IMG/VR virus record: IMGVR_UViG_3300017729_000001
Location: 26,430-90,429 of that record
Source of the DNA: a virus
Length of the DNA stretch: 64,000 bases
Direction: 5' to 3' (one strand)
The notes beneath the pieces were generated by a model that was given only the letters and a program-made list of their open reading frames with translations, was not told where the DNA came from and did not search any database. The translations under genes and the position numbers were made by a program. Positions 12,202 to 64,000 of this stretch are shown here, piece after piece. Positions within the stretch are counted from its first letter, which is position 1, and the number at the start of each line of letters is the position of its first letter.

Positions 12202-14062
12202 TTAAAATCAGTTTACTCACCCCATTTACTTTTTCAATACAAACTTCATTTTCGGCACCAATTGGGTCATTTCGGTGAGTAACTACCATCGTGGTAACTC
12301 CTAGTGTTTCCAAAATATTTAGCACGTCTTTCTGTCCTGTCCTGTCCAGACCTTCAAAAACTTCATCTAGTCCTAAAAAGTTTAGTCCACCATTATTAGC
12401 AGACATATTCATTAGTTTTTGAAGACCTACGATACAAGCCAAATTGACTCTACCTTTTTCACCCCCACTGTACCTCTCAAAACTCCCTTGTTTGATACCA
12501 TCCCTGACGATTGATATAGTGATGTTTTCTCTCACGTCATTATTTTTCAAAACTTTGTAACCTTCAATTTTCACCGACAAATCTGTATTAAATTTCCTAA
12601 GATACGAATTTGTAATGTGTTCAATTGTCTTTATAGACTGATTAGTGAGGTATGTTAGAAAACCTTTTTTGGAGAAATGATATATCCAAAAGTTTGCTTC
12701 TTCACTAGCAATCAAATGTTTAGACAATTTATCATCCTCAGAATCTTTATCAGCTTTGTACTCTTTTAGTTTTGATTGGAGTGATTTTACTTTGGTATTA
12801 TTTTTCTTTTCTTTTTCAAGTTTTTTTAGTTCTTCTTTAAAACCTTCAATGTTATTTTGAGCCATCTTATCCTTTTTGGATAGCATTTCAATATCAGTTT
12901 TCATCTGACTTATCCCTCCATTCAACTTTCTTACTTTGCTTGACAGCAAATCATTTTCTTCTAGTTGAGCATTCAGATTTTTATTGTCGGCAAGATATTT
13001 TTTGTTTTTATCTATTATGCCCTCAATAAACTTTTCTGCTACCTTAACCATTTCAGGAATGGTTTTGATATCTATATCCTCACCCTGATTCCATTCATGG
13101 CTACATTTAGGGCAAGTTGTAGTTCCTTTTAAAATTCTCTCCAGATGGTCAATATTATCTTTAGCCTCATTTATTTGTTTTTTGTTCTCTCTGACTATTC
13201 TGTTATTCTTATTAATCTTGCTTTCAATCTCAGTACAGTCAACCAAACTACTTTTTAAAATATCTAGCTTGGATATTTTCTCTTTTAAATCTTCACTCCA
13301 AGTCAATCTACGTTCCTTGATTGTTTCTATTTTATCAAGTTGGTCATCGATGTTGTCGTTGAGATTATTCATCCTATCCTTAAATCTCTCTTCACTATTC
13401 GCTTTTTCATCGTCAATCTGACCTGTGGTTATTTCGATGTAGCTATCAATCTTGATTATAGACTTTTCCAACTCGCCAATTATAGCAACTTGTTTTTTAT
13501 TCTGAGCCTTTAGTGATTCAACTCGTTTTTCTATCACATCAGCATTAGTCAATCTGCTAATGATTTTCTTTTGCTCACTATCTCCAGCAGTAAGGAATGA
13601 ATAATTTGAATCTTGCCCTACTATAAAAAAGTGAAGCAAGTCATCCCTCGTCACTCCTATCAAATCGAATATCCTAGCATTACACTCGTTGACTGAAGTC
13701 ATTTCGGTGTTCAACTCGCCATTTTCCCACAACTCTATTTTTGCCGACTTAGTTCTGTGTATCCATCTCTTTACCACTAGACTTTTTACATCACAAACAG
13801 CATTCTCTAATTGTAGTTCAACATAGCAAACATCTCCAGAATCATTAACAAATTCTGTTCTATTTACGTCACGACAAGTTTTGCCAGTCAAGGCTAAAGT
13901 CACACCCTCAATTAAACCACTTTTACCACTCCCATTACTATCTGCTCCTGAATCAGTCATATTCCTACCGAACAGCATTGTACACTTATTCTTTAGAAAT
14001 CTATATTCAGTATCAACATGCGAAAATAGGTTTTCAATTTTTATAACTTTTGGTTGCCACAT
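12188..14062 (-). CDS. sbcC: SbcC/Rad50/gp46-like recombination ATPase
   Basis: NGSGKS Walker A, coiled coil with CPKC zinc hook, YSGGEK signature, LDEVF, H-loop VTHR. Confidence 0.92.
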   Translation of the reverse strand: MWQPKVIKIENLFSHVDTEYRFLKNKCTMLFGRNMTDSGADSNGSGKSGLIEGVTLALTGKTCRDVNRTEFVNDSGDVCYVELQLENAVCDVKSLVVKRWIHRTKSAKIELWENGELNTEMTSVNECNARIFDLIGVTRDDLLHFFIVGQDSNYSFLTAGDSEQKKIISRLTNADVIEKRVESLKAQNKKQVAIIGELEKSIIKIDSYIEITTGQIDDEKANSEERFKDRMNNLNDNIDDQLDKIETIKERRLTWSEDLKEKISKLDILKSSLVDCTEIESKINKNNRIVRENKKQINEAKDNIDHLERILKGTTTCPKCSHEWNQGEDIDIKTIPEMVKVAEKFIEGIIDKNKKYLADNKNLNAQLEENDLLSSKVRKLNGGISQMKTDIEMLSKKDKMAQNNIEGFKEELKKLEKEKKNNTKVKSLQSKLKEYKADKDSEDDKLSKHLIASEEANFWIYHFSKKGFLTYLTNQSIKTIEHITNSYLRKFNTDLSVKIEGYKVLKNNDVRENITISIVRDGIKQGSFERYSGGEKGRVNLACIVGLQKLMNMSANNGGLNFLGLDEVFEGLDRTGQKDVLNILETLGVTTMVVTHRNDPIGAENEVCIEKVNGVSKLILNGQD

Positions 14063-14064
14063 AT

Positions 14065-14412
14065 CTATTTATTTTTGAACTTATATCTTGGACTCAATGA
14101 GTATTCCTCAACTCTCTCTATAATTCTTAACTCTGTGACTTCAACTCCCTTTTCTGCTAAATATGATTCAGCATGCTTGATGGCTTTTACAGGTGACTTG
14201 AACATTTTTGGTATTTTCAATCCTGTAATACCTTCAGAAATTTGCCAGAATTTTAGTGATTTTTTATTTACTTTGTGTAAGATGAAATCAAATTCTTCAA
14301 AGCCTTTAATCTTGACTCTTTTTGCTCCACCTACTTTTTGGAATGAATCCTTTTTTCTTATGAAAAAATTATCTGATACTTTTTCATATTTACTCGACAG
14401 TCTTTTTATCAC
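14065..14412 (-). CDS. hypothetical protein
   Basis: 115-aa basic ORF between sbcD and sbcC. Confidence 0.6.
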   Translation of the reverse strand: MIKRLSSKYEKVSDNFFIRKKDSFQKVGGAKRVKIKGFEEFDFILHKVNKKSLKFWQISEGITGLKIPKMFKSPVKAIKHAESYLAEKGVEVTELRIIERVEEYSLSPRYKFKNK

Positions 14413-15448
14413 CTTTTAATATTTTTAGTCCAACACTCAGTTTCTTTTGAGGAATGGATTGAACTTTACAATATTTCAAAAAGTGTTTCATAATCGTTTT
14501 TGAATTGAACTGAGTAAAGTTTTCACCCTCTACATTCACTACTCCATCAAGGTCATCGGTTGACTCAAATTTACAATCTATGCCAACATCAGTGAATCTA
14601 CTTAAAGTAATCTTGTCCAAGTCAGTTTTATTGCCCTGAAATACAAATCTCACATAATCGTCAGAATCTGTATAGAACTCTAATTCATTTTCAATAGCAT
14701 CAGAATCACTAGCATCAATTACCACTTTTTTATATTGTGGAAAATTAGATTGCTTGTGTTCCAAACTTCCATCATCGTATATTATCGTGAATCCTTTATC
14801 AGTGATATTTTCTCCGAAATTACCTTGGTACGCTGACCCTGTGTAGTAGATGTTTTGTCCTACCTTGCTAGCATCGTGATAATGACCAACCAATACCTTA
14901 TCCCACCACTTTACTGAACTGGGTGCTACGCCCTCTGAAACCTCTGAACCATCGTTGTTTTTGACTCCGTTAAAAGCCTTGTGAGTGATTAAAATATTCT
15001 TTTCGCAACCTACTTTATCTTGTAAATCTTGTAGCTTCATTAATCTCTTCTCATAGGAATCTGTAAAGTAAGGAATCCAACCTATACAAATATCAGGAAA
15101 ATCATCAAGCACTGTTATATTCTCATCTTTATAGACAACGAAATTTTCAGAATCAAATAAGTCTAAATAACTATTTTCAGAATCTTGGTCTGTCTTATCA
15201 TGATTACCAGGAATCGCCAAGCAAGTGATATTTCTTTCTTCTAGTTCCTTCACAATAGAATCCATCGCAATTAAGGTTGCTAAGTTTTGCCCCACTCTAT
15301 TAGTAAAGACATCACCGCCATGGAATATATGATTAACTCCTAGTTGCTCAGCCATCTTCATAGCTTGGCTGAATATATCCTTAACTTTCTTCAGATTGTC
15401 TTTATGCTTGTGTGTATCTGTTAAAAATACTGCTATTGGTTTCTTCAT
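14390..15448 (-). CDS. sbcD: SbcD/Mre11/gp47-like metallophosphoesterase nuclease
   Basis: TDTH, GGDVF, PGNHD, ITH, VGHYH motifs. Confidence 0.92.
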   Translation of the reverse strand: MKKPIAVFLTDTHKHKDNLKKVKDIFSQAMKMAEQLGVNHIFHGGDVFTNRVGQNLATLIAMDSIVKELEERNITCLAIPGNHDKTDQDSENSYLDLFDSENFVVYKDENITVLDDFPDICIGWIPYFTDSYEKRLMKLQDLQDKVGCEKNILITHKAFNGVKNNDGSEVSEGVAPSSVKWWDKVLVGHYHDASKVGQNIYYTGSAYQGNFGENITDKGFTIIYDDGSLEHKQSNFPQYKKVVIDASDSDAIENELEFYTDSDDYVRFVFQGNKTDLDKITLSRFTDVGIDCKFESTDDLDGVVNVEGENFTQFNSKTIMKHFLKYCKVQSIPQKKLSVGLKILKGDKKTVE

Positions 15449-16574: not shown

Positions 16575-17750
16575 TTATTTACCTTTCAATCTTGCTCTTA
16601 TATCATCCATAGACATAGAACCAGATGTCTCTTGCTCATCTTCTTCATCCTCATCTTCATCCTCATCAGAATCAGCGTTGCGAATCGCATCGGCAATATC
16701 TTCATCACTCATAGACTTCTTAACAACAATATCTAGTTCTTCAGACTTGATATGCTTTTTAAGTTCCATTCTACTCATACCTGAGAATTCATCCCCATCC
16801 TCTTCAGAATCTTCATCCTCATCTTCCTCTTCATCTTCTTCCTCTTCTTCAACAACTGGAGCAGGCTTTTTTGACTGCTTTTTCGGTGCTGGCTTTTCAT
16901 CCTCATCCTCGTCATCCTCATCCTCAATTGCGTCATATTGACCTTTAACAGTCTCAATCGTATCTAACCAAGAATCATCATCGAACGCATCAACCTCAAA
17001 TTTAGCATCAAAGAACTTTAAACCCTCCAAAGCAGTTTCAAATTGACTCAATCCGTAAACTCCGACATACATTTCAGTAAGTGGTTTTGCTTGGTCAAAT
17101 AAATCTAAATCTGAATCACTGATAGCAATAGCTTTTTTACCAACTTGGACATCGTAAAAGTCTTCACCTTTCTTTTTATTAGGCTTTGAGTTGTATCTAA
17201 TTAACAACGGCAATCCGTCATCTACATCAGTGAATGGGTCAACCTCAATCGGCTCATCGTCATCCTCTACAAAAGTTGCTTTATTAATCGCATCACGAAC
17301 AGTCTTTTTAAACGCTAGCAATCCGAATTCATTACCATCTTTCTGAATCTTTACGGCATAAGCTATAAAGTGATGTTGAGCATTCAATCCATCTTTCCAA
17401 TGAGTCAATGCTTCAAGTGTATCTTTATCAGTAACATTCTTCTTACAGTAGTTTACATATTCCTGAATAATATCTCGTTTGGTTCCTCCATGTGCCCTAG
17501 AATCTAGCACAGTTCTTCTAATTTCTTCACCATCTTCATCTTCAAGAGTCAACCAATATCTCTTTCTCATGATATAATAGTCAGCTCCATCGTGAGGTGG
17601 TAAAAGTCTAAATTTGTTCGTTGCTCCCTCTTTTATCTCTAAAAAATCAGAGCCACCTTGATTAACACCAACCAAGGCATCTTCTTGTTGGACTTTTTTC
17701 TTCAGTGCTTCCAACTTAACTGGTTTGTACTTGTTTCTTAAATTCGCCAT
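16575..17750 (-). CDS. single-stranded DNA-binding protein, gp32-like (start probably MANLRNK at 17750)
   Basis: KFRLLPP, DPFTD.DDG, very acidic C-terminal tail; between UvsY-like and RecA-like genes. Confidence 0.75.
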   Translation of the reverse strand: MANLRNKYKPVKLEALKKKVQQEDALVGVNQGGSDFLEIKEGATNKFRLLPPHDGADYYIMRKRYWLTLEDEDGEEIRRTVLDSRAHGGTKRDIIQEYVNYCKKNVTDKDTLEALTHWKDGLNAQHHFIAYAVKIQKDGNEFGLLAFKKTVRDAINKATFVEDDDEPIEVDPFTDVDDGLPLLIRYNSKPNKKKGEDFYDVQVGKKAIAISDSDLDLFDQAKPLTEMYVGVYGLSQFETALEGLKFFDAKFEVDAFDDDSWLDTIETVKGQYDAIEDEDDEDEDEKPAPKKQSKKPAPVVEEEEEDEEEDEDEDSEEDGDEFSGMSRMELKKHIKSEELDIVVKKSMSDEDIADAIRNADSDEDEDEDEEDEQETSGSMSMDDIRARLKGK

Positions 17751-17778
17751 TTTATTTCGATTTTTATTAGTAACTATG

Positions 17779-18321
17779 TTAATCAATTTCGCCCTTTATT
17801 GCGCCATCTTTTATTTTGAAATATACATTATTCAGTTGCTGTTGAATAATCTTGTCATCAATGTCTCCTGTTCTCAAAGTCATACTCAACTTATCTAGCT
17901 TGTTTGACTTATCTCGTGCTGACTGATATATTGAATACATGTACTCTTTTTCTTTTTGTACATTCAACATTCTTTTTTTCTTAATCTTCCATTTAGCATG
18001 ATTAAGCATAGCTGAGTCAACCTCGTCAATAGTTGGTCTTTTTACTTTGCCTTTTTCATCACTGAAAGTTAATTCTTCACGCAACTCCTTTTTTAATTTA
18101 GCTTCAGTGATGCTTAAATCTAGTTTTGATTGTTGAAACTCATTATCCATATCGGCACATAACAATCCTAGCTTATTAACGACCACTGGAAAGGTGACAA
18201 GTTCCGCAACTAAATTATTGTAGTCAATGGATAATAACTTATCTAAGTCCACATCGTCAAACTCTTCTGTTCTAAAAAAGACAACCTTGTCTCCAATAGT
18301 GAATTTCATTTCTTTACTCAT
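17779..18321 (-). CDS. UvsY-like recombination mediator
   Basis: LSIDYNNL..EL...P; coiled coil; RPTIDEVDSA; position next to SSB/RecA. Confidence 0.55.
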   Translation of the reverse strand: MSKEMKFTIGDKVVFFRTEEFDDVDLDKLLSIDYNNLVAELVTFPVVVNKLGLLCADMDNEFQQSKLDLSITEAKLKKELREELTFSDEKGKVKRPTIDEVDSAMLNHAKWKIKKKRMLNVQKEKEYMYSIYQSARDKSNKLDKLSMTLRTGDIDDKIIQQQLNNVYFKIKDGAIKGEID

Positions 18322-18346: not shown

Positions 18347-18607
18347 TTACTCAATTTTTTCCTTTTTTGAAGAATCTTGATTCATATCAATCATTCGCTC
18401 CAAATAGTCTTTCGCCTTTAATAAGTCTGTCAGATTGTGACCTTTGGTTGAGTTGGGTCTTGTAAACCTGTCCAGGTATCTTTTAACATTTTCAGAACAC
18501 CATATGTCACCACGTTCTTTACTTATTCTGTAGTTGGTTGATATCTGGTCGAACTCTCTTGGTCCATACTTACTTCTGTTTGATTCATTTAATTCCTTAA
18601 CGTCCAT
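18347..18607 (-). CDS. DUF3310-like protein
   Basis: NVKRYLDR...KG....DLLKAKDYLERMI matches the N..KY..R...K....DL.KA..YL pattern. Confidence 0.7.
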   Translation of the reverse strand: MDVKELNESNRSKYGPREFDQISTNYRISKERGDIWCSENVKRYLDRFTRPNSTKGHNLTDLLKAKDYLERMIDMNQDSSKKEKIE

Positions 18608-19232
18608 ATTTTGTATAATTTAATGATGAAATATCTACAAGCACTTGTTCTTCAAACTTGCCTCTTTCTTTTAGAGCCTTAAAACACTTGCCTGATGCTT
18701 CTCTTATTTTCTCGACACAATAATCAAACTCCTTGTATAAATCTTTATTGCCCAATGTTATTTCTTTTTTTACATAGAATAACATAGATAACCAATCAGC
18801 CAATTTTACGATGGTTTTAACCACTGGGTCATTATCTCCTAGCAGATACGACTTCAGCATATTGTTAGTTGGACTAAACTCCTTGAATTTAGTGCTTACC
18901 ATATGGTGACAATAGTCATCAATCATTTCTTTTATCTTGTGTCCGTTGTACTTATTGTACTTCACATTATGGGTAATGTCGCCTGAGAACATTTCATCGA
19001 AATCGTGAAATATCGCATATGTAGTTACATCCAATTTTAGCTTTTCTTCACCCTCTGGAAACATCTCTTCAACAAGTATTCTGGAGAACCAAGACACTAT
19101 AAAGGAATGGTGAGCAACTGACTCGTTGTTTATCCTATTCAATCCATTCCACCTTACTAAATTATTCAACTGGTCGTAATCAGCGTCAGTGAATATGTCG
19201 TCAAAAATATTATTCATAATTTTAATTGTCAT
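18597..19232 (-). CDS. HD-domain 5'-deoxynucleotidase / dNTP phosphohydrolase (YfbR-like)
   Basis: RW...ESVAHHSF.V...AIFHDFDEMFSGDI...VK...IVKLADWLS. Confidence 0.88.
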   Translation of the reverse strand: MTIKIMNNIFDDIFTDADYDQLNNLVRWNGLNRINNESVAHHSFIVSWFSRILVEEMFPEGEEKLKLDVTTYAIFHDFDEMFSGDITHNVKYNKYNGHKIKEMIDDYCHHMVSTKFKEFSPTNNMLKSYLLGDNDPVVKTIVKLADWLSMLFYVKKEITLGNKDLYKEFDYCVEKIREASGKCFKALKERGKFEEQVLVDISSLNYTKYGR

Positions 19233-22200
19233 TTAATACTATTAACCTTGACTGCTTATTGAGCCATAGGTGATTATTTCCAGAGCCTTTTGCGTTTTTA
19301 TTTTTCTGATACTTATTGGATAAGGCAAATCCATTTATACAAAATAACAACTTCTTGGACAATAGTTCTTCAAAGTCATCACTCATACTTTCCCAAATTT
19401 CTCCGAACACTCCTAAAAATAAAAGCACGTTGTTATTCTCTACTGTTATCACAACTCTATAATTACCACTTGACTTTGTTCTGTTTACTTTTATTCCTTG
19501 AACCACTCCAGCCACTGTTAATGGTGTTCCATTTGTTTCTGGCTTCCAAGGTTTGCCCTCTCTAAAATCATTCAACTCAAAGTCTTTAGCAGTTGTGTAT
19601 GGATACTTTTTTAATTTGCTAGACTTCTTACGAATCATCGGCATAAAGTCCACATATCCAAAACCAGTCAACTCTCTCTGCTTAATGGCCCAGAACCAAT
19701 TATTGTTATCTTTGTCCTCAGATGGAAACCCTTCAATATACTTGTGACCAGCTAGTTCGCAATGTCTCAAAAGTATGTGCATTCTTTGCTTCACTTCTCC
19801 TATCTCACACCCATTTTCATCTCCTATCTCATCAAGTGCTCCAGCCATGATTAAATGTTGTACAACTCGCTTATTCACTTTTGACTTCGGCACTCTTTTA
19901 TAGAAATCTTCCAAGTCAAAAAACATACCATTCTTTTCCCTTTCTTCTAGTATGTTTTGAACAGCAATTTGCCCTACATTTTTAATTTTAGTAAGTGACC
20001 AATATATCGCATTACTATCAGAATCGGCAGTGAACTGAATATCCGACTTATTTATATCAGGTTGCTTTACTTTTATATCACCCCCAATTTTTTCAATCTC
20101 TGATAATCTATTAGGAATCTCAATTTTTTCATCGGCAAAGTTCAATGACGCTGTCCAAAACTCTAGTGGATATTTTACTTTTAAATATTGGCACCAATAT
20201 CCCATAAGTGAGTAAGCAGCAGAATGCGACCTGTTGAATCCATAGGCTGAAAATGCGTTTAGTTTGTCCCAAATATCATTAGCTTCATCAGTGGGGCATC
20301 CGTTTTCATTCGCACCCTTCAAAAACTTCTCTTTGGCACTTTGCATCTTCTTATGGTCGAACTTTTTTATGGCTGTCCTTAATTCATCTGCTTCAGCTAA
20401 TGTTAGTTTGCCTAACACGTTTACAGCTTGCATTATCTGTTCCTGATAGATATATAGTCCAAAGGTATTTTCAGTCACCTTATCCAACTTAAAATCATAA
20501 ATAGGTTCAAGTTTTCCGTGCTTAATATCTACGAACTTTTCATGTGCCCTACTATCCATTGGACCAGGTCTAAATAAAGCATTCATTGAAATCAAATCTT
20601 CAATACCATCTGGCCTCACTTTTTTAGAATAGTTTTTCAATCCTGACGTTCCAAACTGAAATACATCTTCGTTCCAACCTCGTTTGAAGAATCGCATGAC
20701 ATCCTTTTTATCAATAGGAATCTTATTCAAACTAACTTTCTTGCCCTTATTCTTTTCTATTTCTTTCAGAATGTACTTGAACTTATCTAGTTGTGCGATG
20801 CCCAAGATGTCCTCTTTTAAGAATCCAGCAGCATCAATGTATTTTCCCTCCCATTCTGATACTAACTGACCATCCATCATCTTAATAGGCATCCAATCAT
20901 GAATCTCCATCTTATTACCATCCCCATCGAATTTCGGCACGATTAAAACAGCTGATGGATGAATGGAACCAGACCTTGGTTGTCCAAGTGGTGCCTTTAT
21001 GGCTTCACAAATATCTATATTTTTCTGTACAAACTTCTTCAAGGAATCTTTACCAACGCAACTTTTAAATATATCAGACCACTCTGGGTTATGTGAGTCA
21101 GGAATTTCCCTTGTGGCAAAATTAACGTCATTAAAAGTCAACCCCTTTACTCTTCCAAAATCTTTTATAGCACTTTTAGTTTTTAGCCTTGTGTATGTTC
21201 CTATCGAACAAACATAATTCTTTCCATACTTTTCTTCAATATATCTCTTTACATCTTGTCTTCTCTTACCCTCAAAATCGACATCAATATCAGGCAAAGC
21301 ATCAGCCGACTTAGCACGCTCACCTGAAACCCTAGCTTTGTTAAGAAATCTCTCAAAAAGTAAATCATATTGAATAGGGTCAATTTCAATTATTCCTAGC
21401 AAATATGCTACTAATGAACCTCCAGCTGAACCCCTAGCTGGTCCAACTAGAATGTCTTGACTTTTAGCCCACTCAACAATATCCCAAAGAATCAAAAAGT
21501 AATCTATAAATCCAGCACCTTTGATTACATCATTTTCCTCATCCACCCTATCTAAATAAGCAGCACACTTTTCTGAGTCATCACCGAACTTCATTAAAAC
21601 CTTTTTTTGAAAGCCTTTCATGATTAAATCGTCATAAAGTTTTTCTGGGTCATCAACTTCAAATCTAGGCAACTTATGGTTACCTGTGTCAATCTGGTAG
21701 TTACAAGCATCAGCAATTACTCTAGTGTTTGCCAAACCTCTTATGACCAAATCAAATTTATCTGGACTTGAATTAAACATGGAAACAATTTTATCCACGA
21801 TATCATCAGCATCTTTAAAGTATTGGTCAACGCTATATGGAATGGCTTTTCTGTCTATCTTGTTCAAGTAATCTTTAGTTCCAAAATCTTGCTTCTCAAT
21901 ATAATAGGCATCACTTATCACGACAGGTTTGATTAACTTGCTGAAATTGTCAAAATAAGTCTTCAAATTATTCAAATTCATCAAATCTAATTTATCATCA
22001 TCGAACTCACTAAAATCAATCTGATAATATAAACCATTTCCGAAAAGTTTTTTGTACTTTTTTATGTATTTGATACCAGCTTTCTTGTCTCCACTTATCC
22101 TATTAAAATACCCTTGAGTTGGAAATACGCAAATAAGTCCTTCAGTTTTTTCAAGCAATATTTCTTCTGGAATGAATGAATCGAAATCTACATTTATCAG

Positions 22201-22839
22201 TTTAGATATGTTCAATAAGTTTCTCCAACCAACATAATTCTTGACATATAACTTTAAATCATAGGTGTTCTGGTATTCAGCTTTTTCATCATAGTCAATC
22301 GCAACCGAAATAGTTTGTCCATGTACACACTTGACTCCTTTCTTCTTAGCAGAAAGTTGTAATGGAAGTGTTCCAGCAAGTGTATTCTTTTCGCAAATTC
22401 CTACGACATCGTGATTAAAGAAAGAGCATTTATCAATCCACCTAGATGATTCACCTGAACCATTCAATAATTCATAGCCAGTGTGAACTCCTAGATTAAC
22501 GAACTTGAAATCAAATACGCTTTTATACTCTCCAATATTTATGAGGTCATTGAATACAGGCTCATATACGACATCTCCAGCCTCATCTCGCTTTTCTTCT
22601 AAAGGTGAATAATAGAATTTTGTCCCCCACTTAAAAACCACATGATTCAAATCATCTCTCTCATATAGTAATTCATCTTCATCATCACTAATTAGAAATT
22701 CAAAATCATCTCCAATTATCTTTCCATCAACTCCCTTTAAATATAACATCTTTCCAAAGCCTGGGACATCATAGATATTAGAGTAGTCAAGCTCATAATT
22801 TATGCCCCTAGACTTTAGCCATTCATTTAGTTCAATCAT
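19222..22839 (-). CDS. dnaE: DNA polymerase III alpha subunit (family C)
   Basis: PHP domain (LGVHTGYELLNG), GPARGSAGGSLVAY, LLFERFLN, PDIDVDF, IYQEQIM, YGFNRSHSAAY, PDINKS. Confidence 0.96.
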   Translation of the reverse strand: MIELNEWLKSRGINYELDYSNIYDVPGFGKMLYLKGVDGKIIGDDFEFLISDDEDELLYERDDLNHVVFKWGTKFYYSPLEEKRDEAGDVVYEPVFNDLINIGEYKSVFDFKFVNLGVHTGYELLNGSGESSRWIDKCSFFNHDVVGICEKNTLAGTLPLQLSAKKKGVKCVHGQTISVAIDYDEKAEYQNTYDLKLYVKNYVGWRNLLNISKLINVDFDSFIPEEILLEKTEGLICVFPTQGYFNRISGDKKAGIKYIKKYKKLFGNGLYYQIDFSEFDDDKLDLMNLNNLKTYFDNFSKLIKPVVISDAYYIEKQDFGTKDYLNKIDRKAIPYSVDQYFKDADDIVDKIVSMFNSSPDKFDLVIRGLANTRVIADACNYQIDTGNHKLPRFEVDDPEKLYDDLIMKGFQKKVLMKFGDDSEKCAAYLDRVDEENDVIKGAGFIDYFLILWDIVEWAKSQDILVGPARGSAGGSLVAYLLGIIEIDPIQYDLLFERFLNKARVSGERAKSADALPDIDVDFEGKRRQDVKRYIEEKYGKNYVCSIGTYTRLKTKSAIKDFGRVKGLTFNDVNFATREIPDSHNPEWSDIFKSCVGKDSLKKFVQKNIDICEAIKAPLGQPRSGSIHPSAVLIVPKFDGDGNKMEIHDWMPIKMMDGQLVSEWEGKYIDAAGFLKEDILGIAQLDKFKYILKEIEKNKGKKVSLNKIPIDKKDVMRFFKRGWNEDVFQFGTSGLKNYSKKVRPDGIEDLISMNALFRPGPMDSRAHEKFVDIKHGKLEPIYDFKLDKVTENTFGLYIYQEQIMQAVNVLGKLTLAEADELRTAIKKFDHKKMQSAKEKFLKGANENGCPTDEANDIWDKLNAFSAYGFNRSHSAAYSLMGYWCQYLKVKYPLEFWTASLNFADEKIEIPNRLSEIEKIGGDIKVKQPDINKSDIQFTADSDSNAIYWSLTKIKNVGQIAVQNILEEREKNGMFFDLEDFYKRVPKSKVNKRVVQHLIMAGALDEIGDENGCEIGEVKQRMHILLRHCELAGHKYIEGFPSEDKDNNNWFWAIKQRELTGFGYVDFMPMIRKKSSKLKKYPYTTAKDFELNDFREGKPWKPETNGTPLTVAGVVQGIKVNRTKSSGNYRVVITVENNNVLLFLGVFGEIWESMSDDFEELLSKKLLFCINGFALSNKYQKNKNAKGSGNNHLWLNKQSRLIVLNDN

Positions 22840-24098
22840 AATTCACCTAATGGATATACAAGTTCTTCTTTTAAATCATCGTTCTGGAACTTAGCCGCAA
22901 AGAAATTCACAGCCAATGCCGTAATATCTAACGATGGAAAGAACATTGTGAGGTCTCCAATCTCCTTTATTTTATTAAATCTGAATTCATCCTTGGTTAT
23001 GATACGTTTTTTATCATCATTCAACAACTCTTTATAATGAAGATACAAATCAAGCAAATCATAAATCAAAGCAAAATACTTAGAAAACTCATTCAGTGAA
23101 TCGAAATCTGCTTTGGCCATTCTTTTCCCTGACTTTAAAGTATTGATGATTAAATCTATATATCCATCAACCTCGTGTAATCTACCTTCCACGCTTTCCA
23201 TATTGAACTTCATATCTATATGAGCTGGGTTGTAGCTATCGTACACGTCAGGAATATTATCTCCATCAGAAGCAAATTGCGTATGCTCATACATATTCAT
23301 AGCAATTTCATTCTCCGTGTAGAAATGAAGACTTTGAGAGTTGTGAGTTTGTGTTCCTAGCTTTAAGCCTAAAATATTAGACATAATCTCAGTAATAAAA
23401 CTAAACTGAAACACATTAGTTGGTAACCCCCAATGTAAGTCATTACTCCTATTCGCTATGGTAGTATGAAACTTGCCATCCCTAACTTTAATCATTACAA
23501 GGTCATTACATGGTATATCCTTGCTTTTAGTGCCCAAGTCAAGTTCCGTATTCCATATTGACATTACAGCACGTCTATCATTTGGGTTTTCGCTTAGCAT
23601 CTTCAATACTGTTAAAACTTGGTCTTCACCCTCCATCATCTGTTGAATATGGTGTCCTATATGTTCTGGTGCTCTTGCTTCTTCCTCAAAATTTAATTTA
23701 CCTTGAACTCCATCAGATGGATGAACATATCCTAATCTTGAATCAACTCCATAATGGCGCAATCTAAAACCATATGGCGCATGAAAAACTTTACCATCAT
23801 CTGAAAACTCTGACATCCTAGAATTAAACTTTTTTAGAAAGTCAACATCACGCTCACCTCTAAATATCCAAAGTGCTTCAGCCAATAAAAAGAAAATGTT
23901 GATATCTCTATTACTTGTGCCTACACATCTAGCATATGGATTTTTTAAAGTGGTCTTGAAATTTAGAACTTCTTTAGTTGGACCATATCTACTATCCTCA
24001 CTTTGTCCGTTCTCAATGACGTACTTATTAATTGCTGGGTAAACTTTTGAAAAGATAGGTGCTTTGACACTATCATTTAAAATCTGATTTGAACTCAT
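22836..24098 (-). CDS. thymidylate synthase-family enzyme, likely dUMP hydroxymethyltransferase
   Basis: NIFFLLAEALW, APYGFR, RRAVMSIW, KDIPCN (catalytic Cys), NRSNDLHWGLPTN (Asn = dUMP-type specificity residue), HNSQSLHFY. Confidence 0.8.
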   Translation of the reverse strand: MSSNQILNDSVKAPIFSKVYPAINKYVIENGQSEDSRYGPTKEVLNFKTTLKNPYARCVGTSNRDINIFFLLAEALWIFRGERDVDFLKKFNSRMSEFSDDGKVFHAPYGFRLRHYGVDSRLGYVHPSDGVQGKLNFEEEARAPEHIGHHIQQMMEGEDQVLTVLKMLSENPNDRRAVMSIWNTELDLGTKSKDIPCNDLVMIKVRDGKFHTTIANRSNDLHWGLPTNVFQFSFITEIMSNILGLKLGTQTHNSQSLHFYTENEIAMNMYEHTQFASDGDNIPDVYDSYNPAHIDMKFNMESVEGRLHEVDGYIDLIINTLKSGKRMAKADFDSLNEFSKYFALIYDLLDLYLHYKELLNDDKKRIITKDEFRFNKIKEIGDLTMFFPSLDITALAVNFFAAKFQNDDLKEELVYPLGEL

Positions 24099-24125: not shown

Positions 24126-24152
24126 AAAAAAAAGGCATCCACTTGGGATGCC
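24126..24152 (-). terminator. intrinsic terminator
   Basis: GGCATCC-CAAGT-GGATGCC then T8 on minus strand. Confidence 0.8.
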
Positions 24153-24178
24153 CTTTACTGCTATTAATAACCTCTCTT

Positions 24179-25135: not shown

Positions 25136-25720
25136 TTAGTCAGCGTGAGATAACACTTTGTAAATTTCAGTTTCTTCCAATAACTCTGGAACTCTGTCTT
25201 TAATCTTAGCCAAGTTTCTTTTGATACTATTCTTAGCACTTTTCTTGCTCTTATTTATCTTGTTGATTTTCGATATTGGAAAACCTTTTAGATATAGCAT
25301 AAAGAACTTTTTTTCATCCTCAGGAATATCCTGAAGGACATCGGTCATTCCGACCATGAGTTGTTTTTTCTTAAAGTCAACACTAACATTGAAATCTTCA
25401 GTACCATAGTCAAAATTAATATCAGACATGGATACTGTTTTTAGTTCCGCATTAATATCTCGTATGAAATCTTTCACCTTATTAATCATTACAGTCTTTA
25501 AATAAAACTTCAACGGCACAGGTTTCTCTCGCCCAGTCTTTTTATATTGCTTGTATTTTAATAGGTATGATTCTAGTGCCGTCCATAATCTGATTTTCAA
25601 ATCTTGTTCAACATCTTCTTGCGAATATGATATGTGTCCGACATTGAATACTTTTTTAGCATACTGAACTGCTAGGTATTCGTTTTTAGTGTACAATCTT
25701 AAAATCTGCTTTTTTTCCAT
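25136..25720 (-). CDS. RNA polymerase sigma factor-like protein (start probably MEKKQ at 25720)
   Basis: EDVEQDLKIRLWTAL...FYLKTVMINKVKDFIR (region 2-like); FMLYLKGFPISKI (region 4-like). Confidence 0.7.
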   Translation of the reverse strand: MEKKQILRLYTKNEYLAVQYAKKVFNVGHISYSQEDVEQDLKIRLWTALESYLLKYKQYKKTGREKPVPLKFYLKTVMINKVKDFIRDINAELKTVSMSDINFDYGTEDFNVSVDFKKKQLMVGMTDVLQDIPEDEKKFFMLYLKGFPISKINKINKSKKSAKNSIKRNLAKIKDRVPELLEETEIYKVLSHAD

Positions 25721-25745
25721 TTTTAAAGTATTTGAGGTTATTAAT

Positions 25746-25780
25746 AAAAAATGCCTCATAGATATTGGATATCTTGAGGC
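25746..25780 (-). terminator. terminator-like hairpin in leader of sigma-like gene
   Basis: GCCTCAAGATAT-CCA-ATATCTATGAGGC-ATTTTTT on minus strand. Confidence 0.65.
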
Positions 25781-25901
25781 TCACTGTTATTCCATTTTTA
25801 AATCTTTTTCCATTTTTAAACAATTTCGTTAAACGAAATTAGTTTAAATAAGTTTGTAATCAAAGCATTCCACTATGTATTTCAAATTATTTTTTAAAAA
25901 T

Positions 25902-62007: not shown

Positions 62008-63432
62008 TTATGACCAATCAATAGGAACATCACATCCAAAGAATTCAGTCATGATTTTTTCACTTTGCTTAATAACTACTTCTGAATTTTCACCGCAAGA
62101 TAACCTCTTTAACTTTTTGGTACTCATAGAATTATCAATGACTCTTTTCATATTTATCACTGGGTCAAATAATATCTGAGCCAACTTAAAGTTATGCTGA
62201 ATGTCCTCTAAGTATTTTTCACTTTTCATTTTTAAGGCTTCATTTAAGTAACCAGCAAACTGCTTTGGAGTAACATCCCATGGTACATATATTGCTCGCA
62301 GTTCTTCATGAATGATATCTTCAATTTCGCATTTTGGTTCCACCAATCCTCTAGTATCTCTCAACACAGGATATGAACCATTAATGATAGCTTCAATAGT
62401 GAAACCATTTAAGTGCGTATTTGAATATTGAGCATAGTGCTTACTGAATGAAGGGTCAACGCTGAACTTAGCATTTTTCTGAACCATATACACATCTTCA
62501 TTAGACATGAAACCCATATGCTCCATTCCGTGTTTTTTAGCACGTTCCCATAAACTCATTCCTATTTCATCAGGGTCACAATCTGGGTCAGTTTTTAATG
62601 ACGCTGTGTATTTAGGCTTGAACTTGCTTTCATCAGTAGTGGTCATATAATATAGCTCTATTCCACTACCACCTATCCACATGCTAGAGCCTTTATTCAG
62701 ATGTGGCGTCAATGATAATAAATCTTCCATCTTTTTCATAGACTTAAACACATGAGCCGCAAAAAAGTCAACTGGTCGTTCAGACATTGTAGTCAAGTGT
62801 AGATTGTCTGGAATGTACCTAGATGCGAAATTTAATTGTCTTGGTATATCGAAATTATCACAACAGTTGTACGCTGATAAATGTACGCAATCTAGTAAAG
62901 TAATTTTTTCACTTAGGTATCTTATCCAACTATTTCTGATATCAAAATAGCCATCGTGAACTGCCATTACTTGCTTAGTTCTTTCTGGTAAGTCAAAAAA
63001 CTTCGGCCAAAAGTTTAACCCCTTTGCTTCTTTAGTCTTGGTTGGCGTAAAACTCCAGAACACTAAATCTACATCTTCCAAAGCCTTATGCCATAACTCT
63101 AATGCGTTGTCAGCAAATATTGGTATTCTATTAGTATATGGAGGCAGTAACCAACCATAGTAGGAATTTCTCCAATAACCAGTTATTTCAGATTTTGTAT
63201 AACCCCCAGCCTGTGACCTATAATCTTGCTTGTCTTGCCAAACACCATCTTCAAGGTCTTTAATCTTTTTGTTGTAAGAATTAATTGGAATGGTTTTGTT
63301 ATAAGTAAGGAATATGATATCAACATCGTGACCCATTTCCTTAAACGCTTGAACTCTGCTTTCTACGTTCTTAACAATACCGCCATACTTAGCAATGTCA
63401 AACGTACAAATTCTAATCTTTAATTTTTTCAT
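62008..63432 (-). CDS. GT-B fold glycosyltransferase
   Basis: KIRIC......GGI...........MGHDVDII N-terminus; VHD; K....L; C-terminal VDPS......NGFTIEAI..G..PV. Confidence 0.75.
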   Translation of the reverse strand: MKKLKIRICTFDIAKYGGIVKNVESRVQAFKEMGHDVDIIFLTYNKTIPINSYNKKIKDLEDGVWQDKQDYRSQAGGYTKSEITGYWRNSYYGWLLPPYTNRIPIFADNALELWHKALEDVDLVFWSFTPTKTKEAKGLNFWPKFFDLPERTKQVMAVHDGYFDIRNSWIRYLSEKITLLDCVHLSAYNCCDNFDIPRQLNFASRYIPDNLHLTTMSERPVDFFAAHVFKSMKKMEDLLSLTPHLNKGSSMWIGGSGIELYYMTTTDESKFKPKYTASLKTDPDCDPDEIGMSLWERAKKHGMEHMGFMSNEDVYMVQKNAKFSVDPSFSKHYAQYSNTHLNGFTIEAIINGSYPVLRDTRGLVEPKCEIEDIIHEELRAIYVPWDVTPKQFAGYLNEALKMKSEKYLEDIQHNFKLAQILFDPVINMKRVIDNSMSTKKLKRLSCGENSEVVIKQSEKIMTEFFGCDVPIDWS

Positions 63433-64000
63433 AATACTCTTCTGGTAATGCTTTATCTATATAACGCTGTTCAAAGAACAAAAATGAGCTTTGAGTTTTG
63501 TAGTATTTCTTAAACAACTCTATTTTCCCCTCATGATTTTCATCACTGAGTTCTTTTAACTGAAATAAAGTGTCAACAACACCTACTAAATACGCTTGGT
63601 TTCTCCTTTTATAACTATGAGGAAAATCACGATAAAAAACATCTGCCAAATTATGAGTAATTACTCTGACCAACCAGTGAAACGGATGTCCAACACCCAT
63701 ACACGTTACAATCTCATATCCAATCTTTTTGTAGTTAGTCACAACTGTTTCTAATTCCTGAGACACCATCGCAAGATTGTCAGCACCCATTTTATTCTCG
63801 CAAAATTTCATAGCAGACATATCGTCCATTACTTTATTATCAGCATAATACTCCTTATGGAATCCTGTCGAATCGGATGGAGTTTGAAGTCTGACTAATT
63901 GCGCACCGAAATGGTTACATATTTCTTGGTCTTCAAGTAATCTCTTTGGATTATTTTCTACAGTTAGAATAACCTTTTTTTCATACTCTGAGTCATACAA
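63413..64000 (-). CDS. PIG-L/LmbE-like deacetylase family protein (5' end probably outside window)
   Basis: VILTV...R..ED......GA...L; CMGVGHPFHWLVR (cf. P.G.GHPDH..VR); FYRDFPH; K.....YY.TQ; PEE. Confidence 0.65.
   Translation of the reverse strand: MYDSEYEKKVILTVENNPKRLLEDQEICNHFGAQLVRLQTPSDSTGFHKEYYADNKVMDDMSAMKFCENKMGADNLAMVSQELETVVTNYKKIGYEIVTCMGVGHPFHWLVRVITHNLADVFYRDFPHSYKRRNQAYLVGVVDTLFQLKELSDENHEGKIELFKKYYKTQSSFLFFEQRYIDKALPEEYYEKIKD

Follow-up and report, generated by a model that had tools for sequence, protein, structure and literature searches.

The window analysed here, a stretch of 64,000 nucleotides that corresponds to bases 26430-90429 of a single viral record of 90,429 bp (IMG/VR record IMGVR_UViG_3300017729_000001), contains a compact block of genes for a homologue of thymidylate synthase (TS), a DnaE-type family C DNA polymerase, an HD-domain phosphohydrolase and a small protein of the DUF3310 family. 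On the basis of sequence comparisons, we consider it likely that this block is the nucleotide-substitution core of a 90.4-kb phage in which the triphosphate of 5-hydroxymethyldeoxyuridine (hmdU), hmdUTP, replaces dTTP, and in which the 5-hydroxymethyluracil (hmU) of the DNA is then processed further. The DNA of this phage probably carries a thymine substitute, because the block pairs a predicted hydroxymethylase with DnaE, a deoxynucleotide phosphatase and a kinase-family protein. This is a known phage strategy in a new, widespread lineage. Three of its traits are unusual: the replicase within the module belongs to family C, an HD gene is conserved, and a protein of the aGPT-Pplase clade 1 (hereafter the clade-1 protein) occurs without its usual partners. 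The replacement or hypermodification of thymine shields the DNA of phages from nucleases, restriction enzymes included, and is a source of new enzymes of DNA chemistry. The module places a thymine-replacement pathway in a large uncultured lineage, and it bears on whether a DnaE-type replicase can use hmdUTP, on whether the HD enzyme clears thymidine nucleotides, and on the role of the clade-1 protein without a kinase and a transferase. The features of the block are, in window coordinates:

22836-24098, minus strand: TS-superfamily enzyme of 420 residues (open reading frame (ORF) list, PF00303, phrog_5131).
19222-22839, minus strand: DnaE-type family C DNA polymerase of 1205 residues (four Pfam domains, phrog_405).
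18597-19232, minus strand: predicted HD-domain deoxynucleotide phosphohydrolase of the YfbR/OxsA/DatZ type, 211 residues (PF12917, phrog_7076).
18347-18607, minus strand: small protein of 86 residues, assigned at the family level to DUF3310 (PF11753 matches among family members).
24130-24156, minus strand: terminator-like hairpin of 11 pairs followed by a T run (consensus scan).

The ORF coordinates and the inspected junction sequences bear out the description of four consecutively overlapping minus-strand genes given in the initial annotation. The overlaps measure 4, 11 and 11 nucleotides, and the start codon of the DnaE gene overlaps the stop codon of the TS homologue (ATGA). The hairpin, located between an upstream gene for a 298-residue protein and the TS homologue, is likely the 5' boundary of the block; since five terminator-like sites were found where 3.2 are expected in shuffled sequences, it is weak when taken alone and serves as a hint only. 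The first 107 bases of the record recur at its end, and the record counts as a complete genome with direct terminal repeats. It has a G+C content of 0.356, all of its long ORFs lie on the minus strand, and no near-identical DNA was found in the phage collection searched.

The 420-residue enzyme matches PF00303 (E = 1.3e-25; 90.5 bits against a cut-off of 24.3) and phrog_5131 (E = 1.7e-69). Compared with 50,697 phage records, it is closest to the SPO1 gp29 group, annotated as dUMP hydroxymethylase, and to proteins of SP8, SP-10, CP-51 and the Pseudomonas phages PaMx11 and Ab18, the last two being TS homologues; these matches share 31-37% identity across 59-72% of the query. In an alignment (A2) of the enzyme with SPO1 gp29, PaMx11 gp51 and the corresponding proteins of two SP-10-like phages, YungSlug and Nachito, against E. 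coli ThyA and T4 gp42, the motifs NPxxR, FSDDG, KDxPCN, NRSNDLHWG and SLHxY are common to the TS homologue and the SPO1-like and PaMx11 enzymes and are not found in E. coli ThyA. FSDDG stands where ThyA has IWDEW, KDxPCN stands where ThyA has APCH, and an unrelated extension of about 130 residues replaces the ThyA C-terminus. The canonical ThyA features are thus not present in the TS homologue, neither the IWDEW segment, which we take to be the folate cap, nor the C-terminal residues that presumably close the active site. The column of ThyA Asn177 holds Asn in the TS homologue and Asp in T4 gp42, a dCMP hydroxymethylase. C197, R217 and S218 are invariant, so that the catalytic Cys and the Arg/Ser pair for the dUMP phosphate are present, and C197, N228, H258 and Y260 are invariant in 21 clade members.

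In a quick maximum-likelihood tree of 28 rows, three of which serve as the outgroup (E. coli ThyA, thyA2 of the Chryseobacterium phage MA9V-3, and T4 gp42), the clade groups with the SPO1-like and PaMx11 enzymes, apart from ThyA, thyA2 and gp42 (SH-aLRT 99). Of the known enzymes, SPO1 gp29 illustrates the relationship well: it shares the NRSNDLHWG motif without a single difference, KDxPCN, FSDDG, the Asn column, a long C-terminal extension and the same side of the tree, yet it is only 28% identical in alignment A2, and there is an extra insert of about 35 residues. The TS homologue is therefore most likely a homologue of the SPO1/M6-type dUMP hydroxymethylase and not a ThyA, an assignment that is well supported by homology. 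The initial annotation had pointed the same way on the strength of KDIPCN and RSNDLHWGLPTN, with Asn at the specificity position; both segments are present in the 420-residue translation, and the best phage matches, the common motifs, the Asn column and the tree agree with its suggestion of an SPO1-type enzyme.

The second gene of the block encodes a complete DnaE. PHP, DNA_pol3_alpha (E = 1.5e-65), finger and HHH_6 domains follow one another in this order in the 1205-residue protein, all above their cut-offs; it matches phrog_405 (E = 1.9e-224) and holds PDIDVDF and KEDILG, which we take to be the catalytic Asp motifs. With the DnaE of MA9V-3 it shares 37% identity, and it further resembles the split DnaE of Cellulophaga phages and the DnaE genes of Tenacibaculum and Bacteroides phages. 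As these relatives belong to phages of Bacteroidota and the G+C content is low, we would guess that the host comes from this phylum. Nine known phages with genes of the hmU pathway were inspected (PaMx11, SPO1, YungSlug, YerA41, AN14/M6, Koji, Vibrio phage D528, Nodularia phage 2AV2 and Nachito), and none of them carries the family C polymerase domain PF07733, in keeping with the earlier remark that known hmU phages use family A or B polymerases. No phage that combines DnaE with hydroxymethyluracil is treated among the best matches of a literature search.

The arrangement of the block is not a chance one. A search of the protein collection with the TS homologue yields 736 homologues at E < 1e-5; the best 120 of these are all at least 44% identical, and some of their contigs reach about 120 kb in length. 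Relatives of the enzyme are encoded on 143 stretches of viral contigs, 80 of which were kept for counts of gene order; the order in these runs helicase, primase, sigma-like gene, 298-residue gene, TS, DnaE, HD, 180-residue gene, single-strand-binding (SSB)-like gene and RecA-like gene. Wherever a related viral locus offers at least 1.5 kb of room (77/77), DnaE starts 0-140 nucleotides past the TS homologue, and where the room extends to at least 6.5 kb, the HD gene comes next after DnaE in all loci but one (57/58), L079 being the sole miss. It is this constancy of order that argues against coincidence. At L060, L066, L039, L044 and about 15 further loci, the first DnaE match begins within 140 nucleotides of the TS homologue and the best one starts 1.7-2.6 kb past it; there, DnaE seems either to contain an insert or to be split, as it is in the Cellulophaga phages.

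The 211-residue protein matches the YfbR-like family PF12917 (E = 3.5e-18; 66.4 bits against a cut-off of 25.9) as well as phrog_7076 (E = 1.6e-22), a family labelled dATP triphosphohydrolase, and a sequence search of the PDB returned OxsA (3.2e-9), Lin2634 and YfbR as the closest solved proteins. An AlphaFold (AF2) model built on 34 sequences has a mean pLDDT of 93.7, and a Foldseek search with this model again placed OxsA, YfbR (with TMP or dAMP bound) and Lin2634 at the top, with a probability of 1.00 for YfbR and OxsA; DatZ (6zpa) followed at rank 15, with TM values of 0.61/0.73. By sequence and predicted fold, the protein is thus classed as a phosphohydrolase of the YfbR/OxsA/DatZ type, and the HD nucleotidase proposed at the outset is upheld. 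Since H42, H76, D77, E80, D85 and D146 are invariant in the 34 sequences, the enzyme is probably active; the H...HD...D metal ligands (H42, H76, D77, D146) are all kept in the family. From the family, the fixed position and the HD genes that lie beside TS or polymerase genes in PaMx11, M6/AN14 and YerA41, we infer that the enzyme clears thymidine nucleotides, a role that would fit the classical dTMPase and dTTPase activities of hmU phages. The best matches of a literature search contain no report that assigns a YfbR-type HD gene to this function in hmU phages.

Alternatively, the hydroxymethylase assignment may hold while the HD enzyme is unrelated to thymidine, serving either as a broad phosphohydrolase of deoxynucleoside mono- and triphosphates that recycles the breakdown products of host DNA, or as an anti-defence enzyme that destroys nucleotides or signals. 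We regard this as rather unlikely, given that the HD gene is fixed directly after the polymerase in all but one of the 58 loci counted and that HD genes recur beside TS or polymerase genes in the unrelated T-modifying phages just mentioned. Relatives of the protein do have a broad reach: YfbR acts on several deoxynucleoside monophosphates and has been solved with two of them, OxsA strips the triphosphate stepwise, and the phrog label names dATP; moreover, the SPO1-like phages replace their thymine without this type of HD gene. The dATP label brings to mind DatZ of cyanophage S-2L, an HD dATPase that excludes adenine, which belongs to the same structural group and follows the same proposed logic of removing a canonical nucleotide. 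It differs in that the two proteins are 12% identical and the proposed target here is thymidine nucleotides rather than dATP. PurZ (PF00709) is not encoded in the genome at E ≤ 1, in a search whose control was positive for every one of the 14 genomes. This excludes that the enzyme acts on dATP in the manner of DatZ in a Z-genome, and we rejected the Z-genome reading suggested by the phrog label.

The 86-residue protein encoded by the fourth gene of the block has no Pfam match by hmmscan, and a six-frame search with PF11753 gave E = 0.0177 and 12.1 bits, below the cut-off of 24 bits. Of 31 close homologues, however, 19 are recognised by this profile at E ≤ 1, the best of them at 1.3e-8. As the query itself stays below the threshold, the DUF3310 label of the initial annotation holds for the predicted family and not for this sequence by itself; a precomputed PF11753 match is present on 2 of 59 homologues. 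T7 gp1.7 carries the PF11753 domain at its C-terminus (E = 3e-25), and excerpts from PMC11897194 and PMC9339283 describe it as phosphorylating dTMP and dGMP. The 86-residue protein is less than half as long as gp1.7 and has no significant direct similarity to it by either BLAST or hhalign. A kinase role for the DUF3310 protein is speculative. In 36 of 63 loci, the gene that comes after the HD gene and before the following conserved one encodes a member of its family. At the other 27 (e.g., L050:15437-15739), this slot is taken by an unrelated protein of ~100 residues with the conserved pattern KNxDYxGxSF...W.K..R...E....D.L.D..GY; hhalign shows no relation of this protein to the DUF3310-like family, and it has no sequence match in the PDB. 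It may resemble the small all-alpha MazG-like nucleotide pyrophosphatases.

Two further genes that are relevant to the proposed pathway lie outside the window (genome coordinates):

25396-25842, just outside the window: dUTPase (PF00692, 1.2e-21).
13500-14540: clade-1 protein of the aGPT-Pplase type, 346 residues (PF18723, 1.2e-50, 173 bits).

The current name of PF18723 is '5-hmdU DNA kinase, helical domain', and in several phage records its members are annotated as aGPT-Pplase clade 1; PaMx11 gp50 belongs to the same family. Genes of this type occur in thymidine-hypermodifying phages such as M6-like, PaMx11, ViI-like and SP-10-like phages, and in others. In the known systems, the clade-1 gene adjoins that of a P-loop 5-hmdU DNA kinase and lies near that of a clade-2 transferase. 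PF18723 is present in all 25 related records and in one of two further ones, the miss being a 60%-complete fragment. E311 and C315 of the clade-1 protein align with a Glu and a Cys that are invariant across clades 1, 2 and 3; excerpts from Lee et al. (PMC8989533) report that mutation of these residues in clades 2 and 3 abolishes transferase activity. In the same excerpts (Lee et al. 2021, PMC8989533), M6 gp55, the clade-1 counterpart, was dispensable in a reconstitution and its role was left undefined. The best fold match of the modelled clade-1 protein (pLDDT 84) is a weak one to PaMx11 gp46/PUGT (E 0.07, probability 0.97), with HhH glycosylases next in rank. Since the genome holds a gene typical of thymidine-hypermodifying phages, plain SPO1-style hmU is the less likely end state, and we favour hmU that is processed in the DNA after replication. 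The thymine replacement by hmU that the initial annotation envisaged is supported in part, above all by the hydroxymethylase homologue.

We suggest the following pathway. dUMP would be supplied by the dUTPase encoded just beyond the window, and the TS homologue, judging from its relatives and active-site motifs, would convert dUMP and methylene-tetrahydrofolate into 5-hydroxymethyl-dUMP (hmdUMP) and not into dTMP. The HD enzyme may remove competing dTMP, and perhaps dTTP, as its family, its position and the analogy with the phage dTMPases/dTTPases and DatZ would have it. Host kinases could then raise hmdUMP to hmdUTP, possibly aided by the DUF3310 protein (a speculative step), whereupon DnaE, translated from the same message, would insert hmdU opposite A. 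Finally, the stand-alone clade-1 protein, in which the catalytic Glu and Cys of the clade-2 transferases are conserved, might act on hmU in the DNA after replication. A dUMP hydroxymethylase, a dTTPase/dTMPase and post-replicative steps are described in excerpts from PMC8989533 and PMC13458397.

Several observations weigh against this pathway. No P-loop 5-hmdU DNA kinase was found in the genome, where PF18748 gave no match at E ≤ 10; this profile is an insensitive one, as the validated PaMx11 gp49 scores just 18 bits with it and the P-loop kinases of the relative G023 are missed. tblastn and phmmer searches of the genome with the G023, PaMx11 and AN14 kinases gave noise only. The amino-acid:DNA transferase (AADT; clade 2, PF18724) was not found in the genome at E ≤ 10 either, nor was a homologue of the AADT-like protein of G023 or of PaMx11 gp46, and both profiles were also negative in 25 relatives; with real sequences as queries, kinase homologues appeared in 2 of 26 relatives and transferase homologues in 1 of 26. 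The genome also lacks detectable genes for a dCMP deaminase and a thymidylate kinase. As to the HD enzyme, four of five further hmU-pathway phages (SPO1, YungSlug, Nachito and Vibrio phage D528) have no YfbR-like HD gene, so hmU pathways do not all include one, and the profile of the HD family here matches PaMx11 gp52 weakly (E 0.0018, probability 15%). For the TS homologue, the nearest solved structures by sequence are the CMP hydroxymethylase MilA (1.4e-16) and ordinary thymidylate synthases (from 2.4e-16), with no solved dUMP hydroxymethylase among the PDB matches that could anchor the assignment; the tree with its small outgroup carried a long-branch warning.

It should be noted that one relative presents a fuller gene set. 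G023 (L098:422-3681) encodes the TS-DnaE-HD block together with an AADT-like gene, P-loop kinases and a clade-1 gene in a row. Its AADT-like protein of 326 residues is related to PaMx11 gp46 (E 6e-5), the two P-loop kinases comprise 224 and 207 residues, the first of them related to PaMx11 gp49 (E 8e-5), and a third paralogue is encoded nearby.

A bolder version of the pathway dispenses with the missing kinase. The clade-1 protein would activate hmU in DNA without the 5-hmdU DNA kinase, and the activated base would then react with a nucleophile or a reductant or, in about 17 of 26 relatives, enter a sugar-transfer step; the lone DUF3310 protein would be a minimal non-P-loop hmdUMP kinase or a subunit of one, and the HD gene would represent the long-sought gene type of the phage dTMPase. 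If true, the block would amount to an operon with a family C replicase at its centre that replaces thymine self-sufficiently. The Glu/Cys pair of the transferases is kept in the clade-1 protein; we regard the scheme as doubtful.

Improbable, in our view, is an explanation in terms of ordinary nucleotide supply, in which a divergent but true thymidylate synthase and a housekeeping 5'-deoxynucleotidase of the salvage pathway are merely clustered with the polymerase in a phage with normal thymine. The enzyme does belong to PF00303, the source labels of its homologues read 'thymidylate synthase', thymidylate synthases in the PDB score about like MilA, and the enzyme retains the catalytic Cys, Arg, Asn, His and Tyr; yet FSDDG has taken the place of IWDEW, the ThyA C-terminus is missing, and the enzyme groups with those of SPO1 and PaMx11. 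Furthermore, all 25 related records keep a clade-1 gene, for which there is no known role where hmU is absent, and G023 combines this gene with an AADT-like gene and P-loop kinases. Hydroxymethylcytosine DNA as in T4, made by a dCMP hydroxymethylase, is more improbable still: despite the common superfamily, the RSND motif shared with T4 gp42 and a putative glycosyltransferase in the genome, we rejected it on the base-specificity column, which holds Asn and not Asp in all 21 clade members, and gp42 is 18% identical and lies across the tree, while the companion PF18723 is of an hmU-specific type.

Viewed as a probable thymine-replacement module, the block shares parts with several known phages. 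The polymerase gene is close to the hydroxymethylase gene in SPO1 too, but that polymerase is not a DnaE (no PF07733), a YfbR-like HD gene is absent, and the clade-1 gene is an extra of the phage studied here. In PaMx11, gp51 (the TS homologue) is directly followed by gp52 (HD), and in AN14/M6 the TS gene is followed by a YfbR-like phosphohydrolase and then by Pol A; all these genomes contain a clade-1 gene. They differ in having a P-loop 5-hmdU DNA kinase, a clade-2/3 transferase and tailoring enzymes beside the clade-1 gene, and in using a family A polymerase, whereas the polymerase here is a DnaE placed between the TS and HD genes. In YerA41, the polymerase gene is immediately preceded by an HD gene.

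The nearest cultured relatives by DnaE, namely MA9V-3 and the Cellulophaga phages phiST and phi13:1, carry DNA-modification genes as well, and MA9V-3 has helicase, primase and baseplate genes in common with the phage studied here. However, these modification genes (queD/queE/folE) are of the 7-deazaguanine type, the TS-DnaE-HD block is absent, and their thyA2 is ordinary-looking. The thyA2 of MA9V-3 has inserts of ~45 and ~35 residues relative to E. coli ThyA. A common replication backbone seems to have taken up different DNA-modification modules in MA9V-3 and phi13:1 on the one hand and in the present lineage on the other. Because these DnaE relatives already carry genes of the 7-deazaguanine type, DnaE phages with modified DNA are not new; it is the modification module that differs here.

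Three additional features of the genome may be listed:

Window 62008-63432, minus strand: putative GT-B glycosyltransferase of 474 residues (weak Glyco_transf_5 match over residues 12-61, E 0.012).
Genome 23084-23710, ~2.7 kb before the start of the window, minus strand: DEDDh exonuclease of the pol III epsilon type (PF00929, 2e-19).
Window 16575-17786: protein of 403 residues with a long, acidic C-terminal tail rich in Asp and Glu (no Pfam or PHROG match).

The putative glycosyltransferase is encoded in 17 of 26 relatives and not in the nine most distant ones. Its gene overlaps a 217-residue ORF that crosses the terminal repeat (window 62008-64000 into genome 1-173), and that begins with a QPHSDD motif reminiscent of the PIG-L/LmbE deacetylases. 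Neither the glycosyltransferase nor this neighbouring putative deacetylase has a sequence match in the PDB. A P-loop protein of 314 residues (genome 16104-17048, minus strand; Walker A GEGGLGKS, Walker B IIFDDCDE) was considered as a kinase and set aside on account of its AAA+-type motifs and weak AAA matches. The DEDDh exonuclease is likely the proofreader for DnaE; the latter, its PHP domain aside, lacks an intrinsic exonuclease. The 403-residue protein with the acidic tail adjoins the RecA-like gene, is kept in the relatives, and is probably a single-strand DNA-binding protein.

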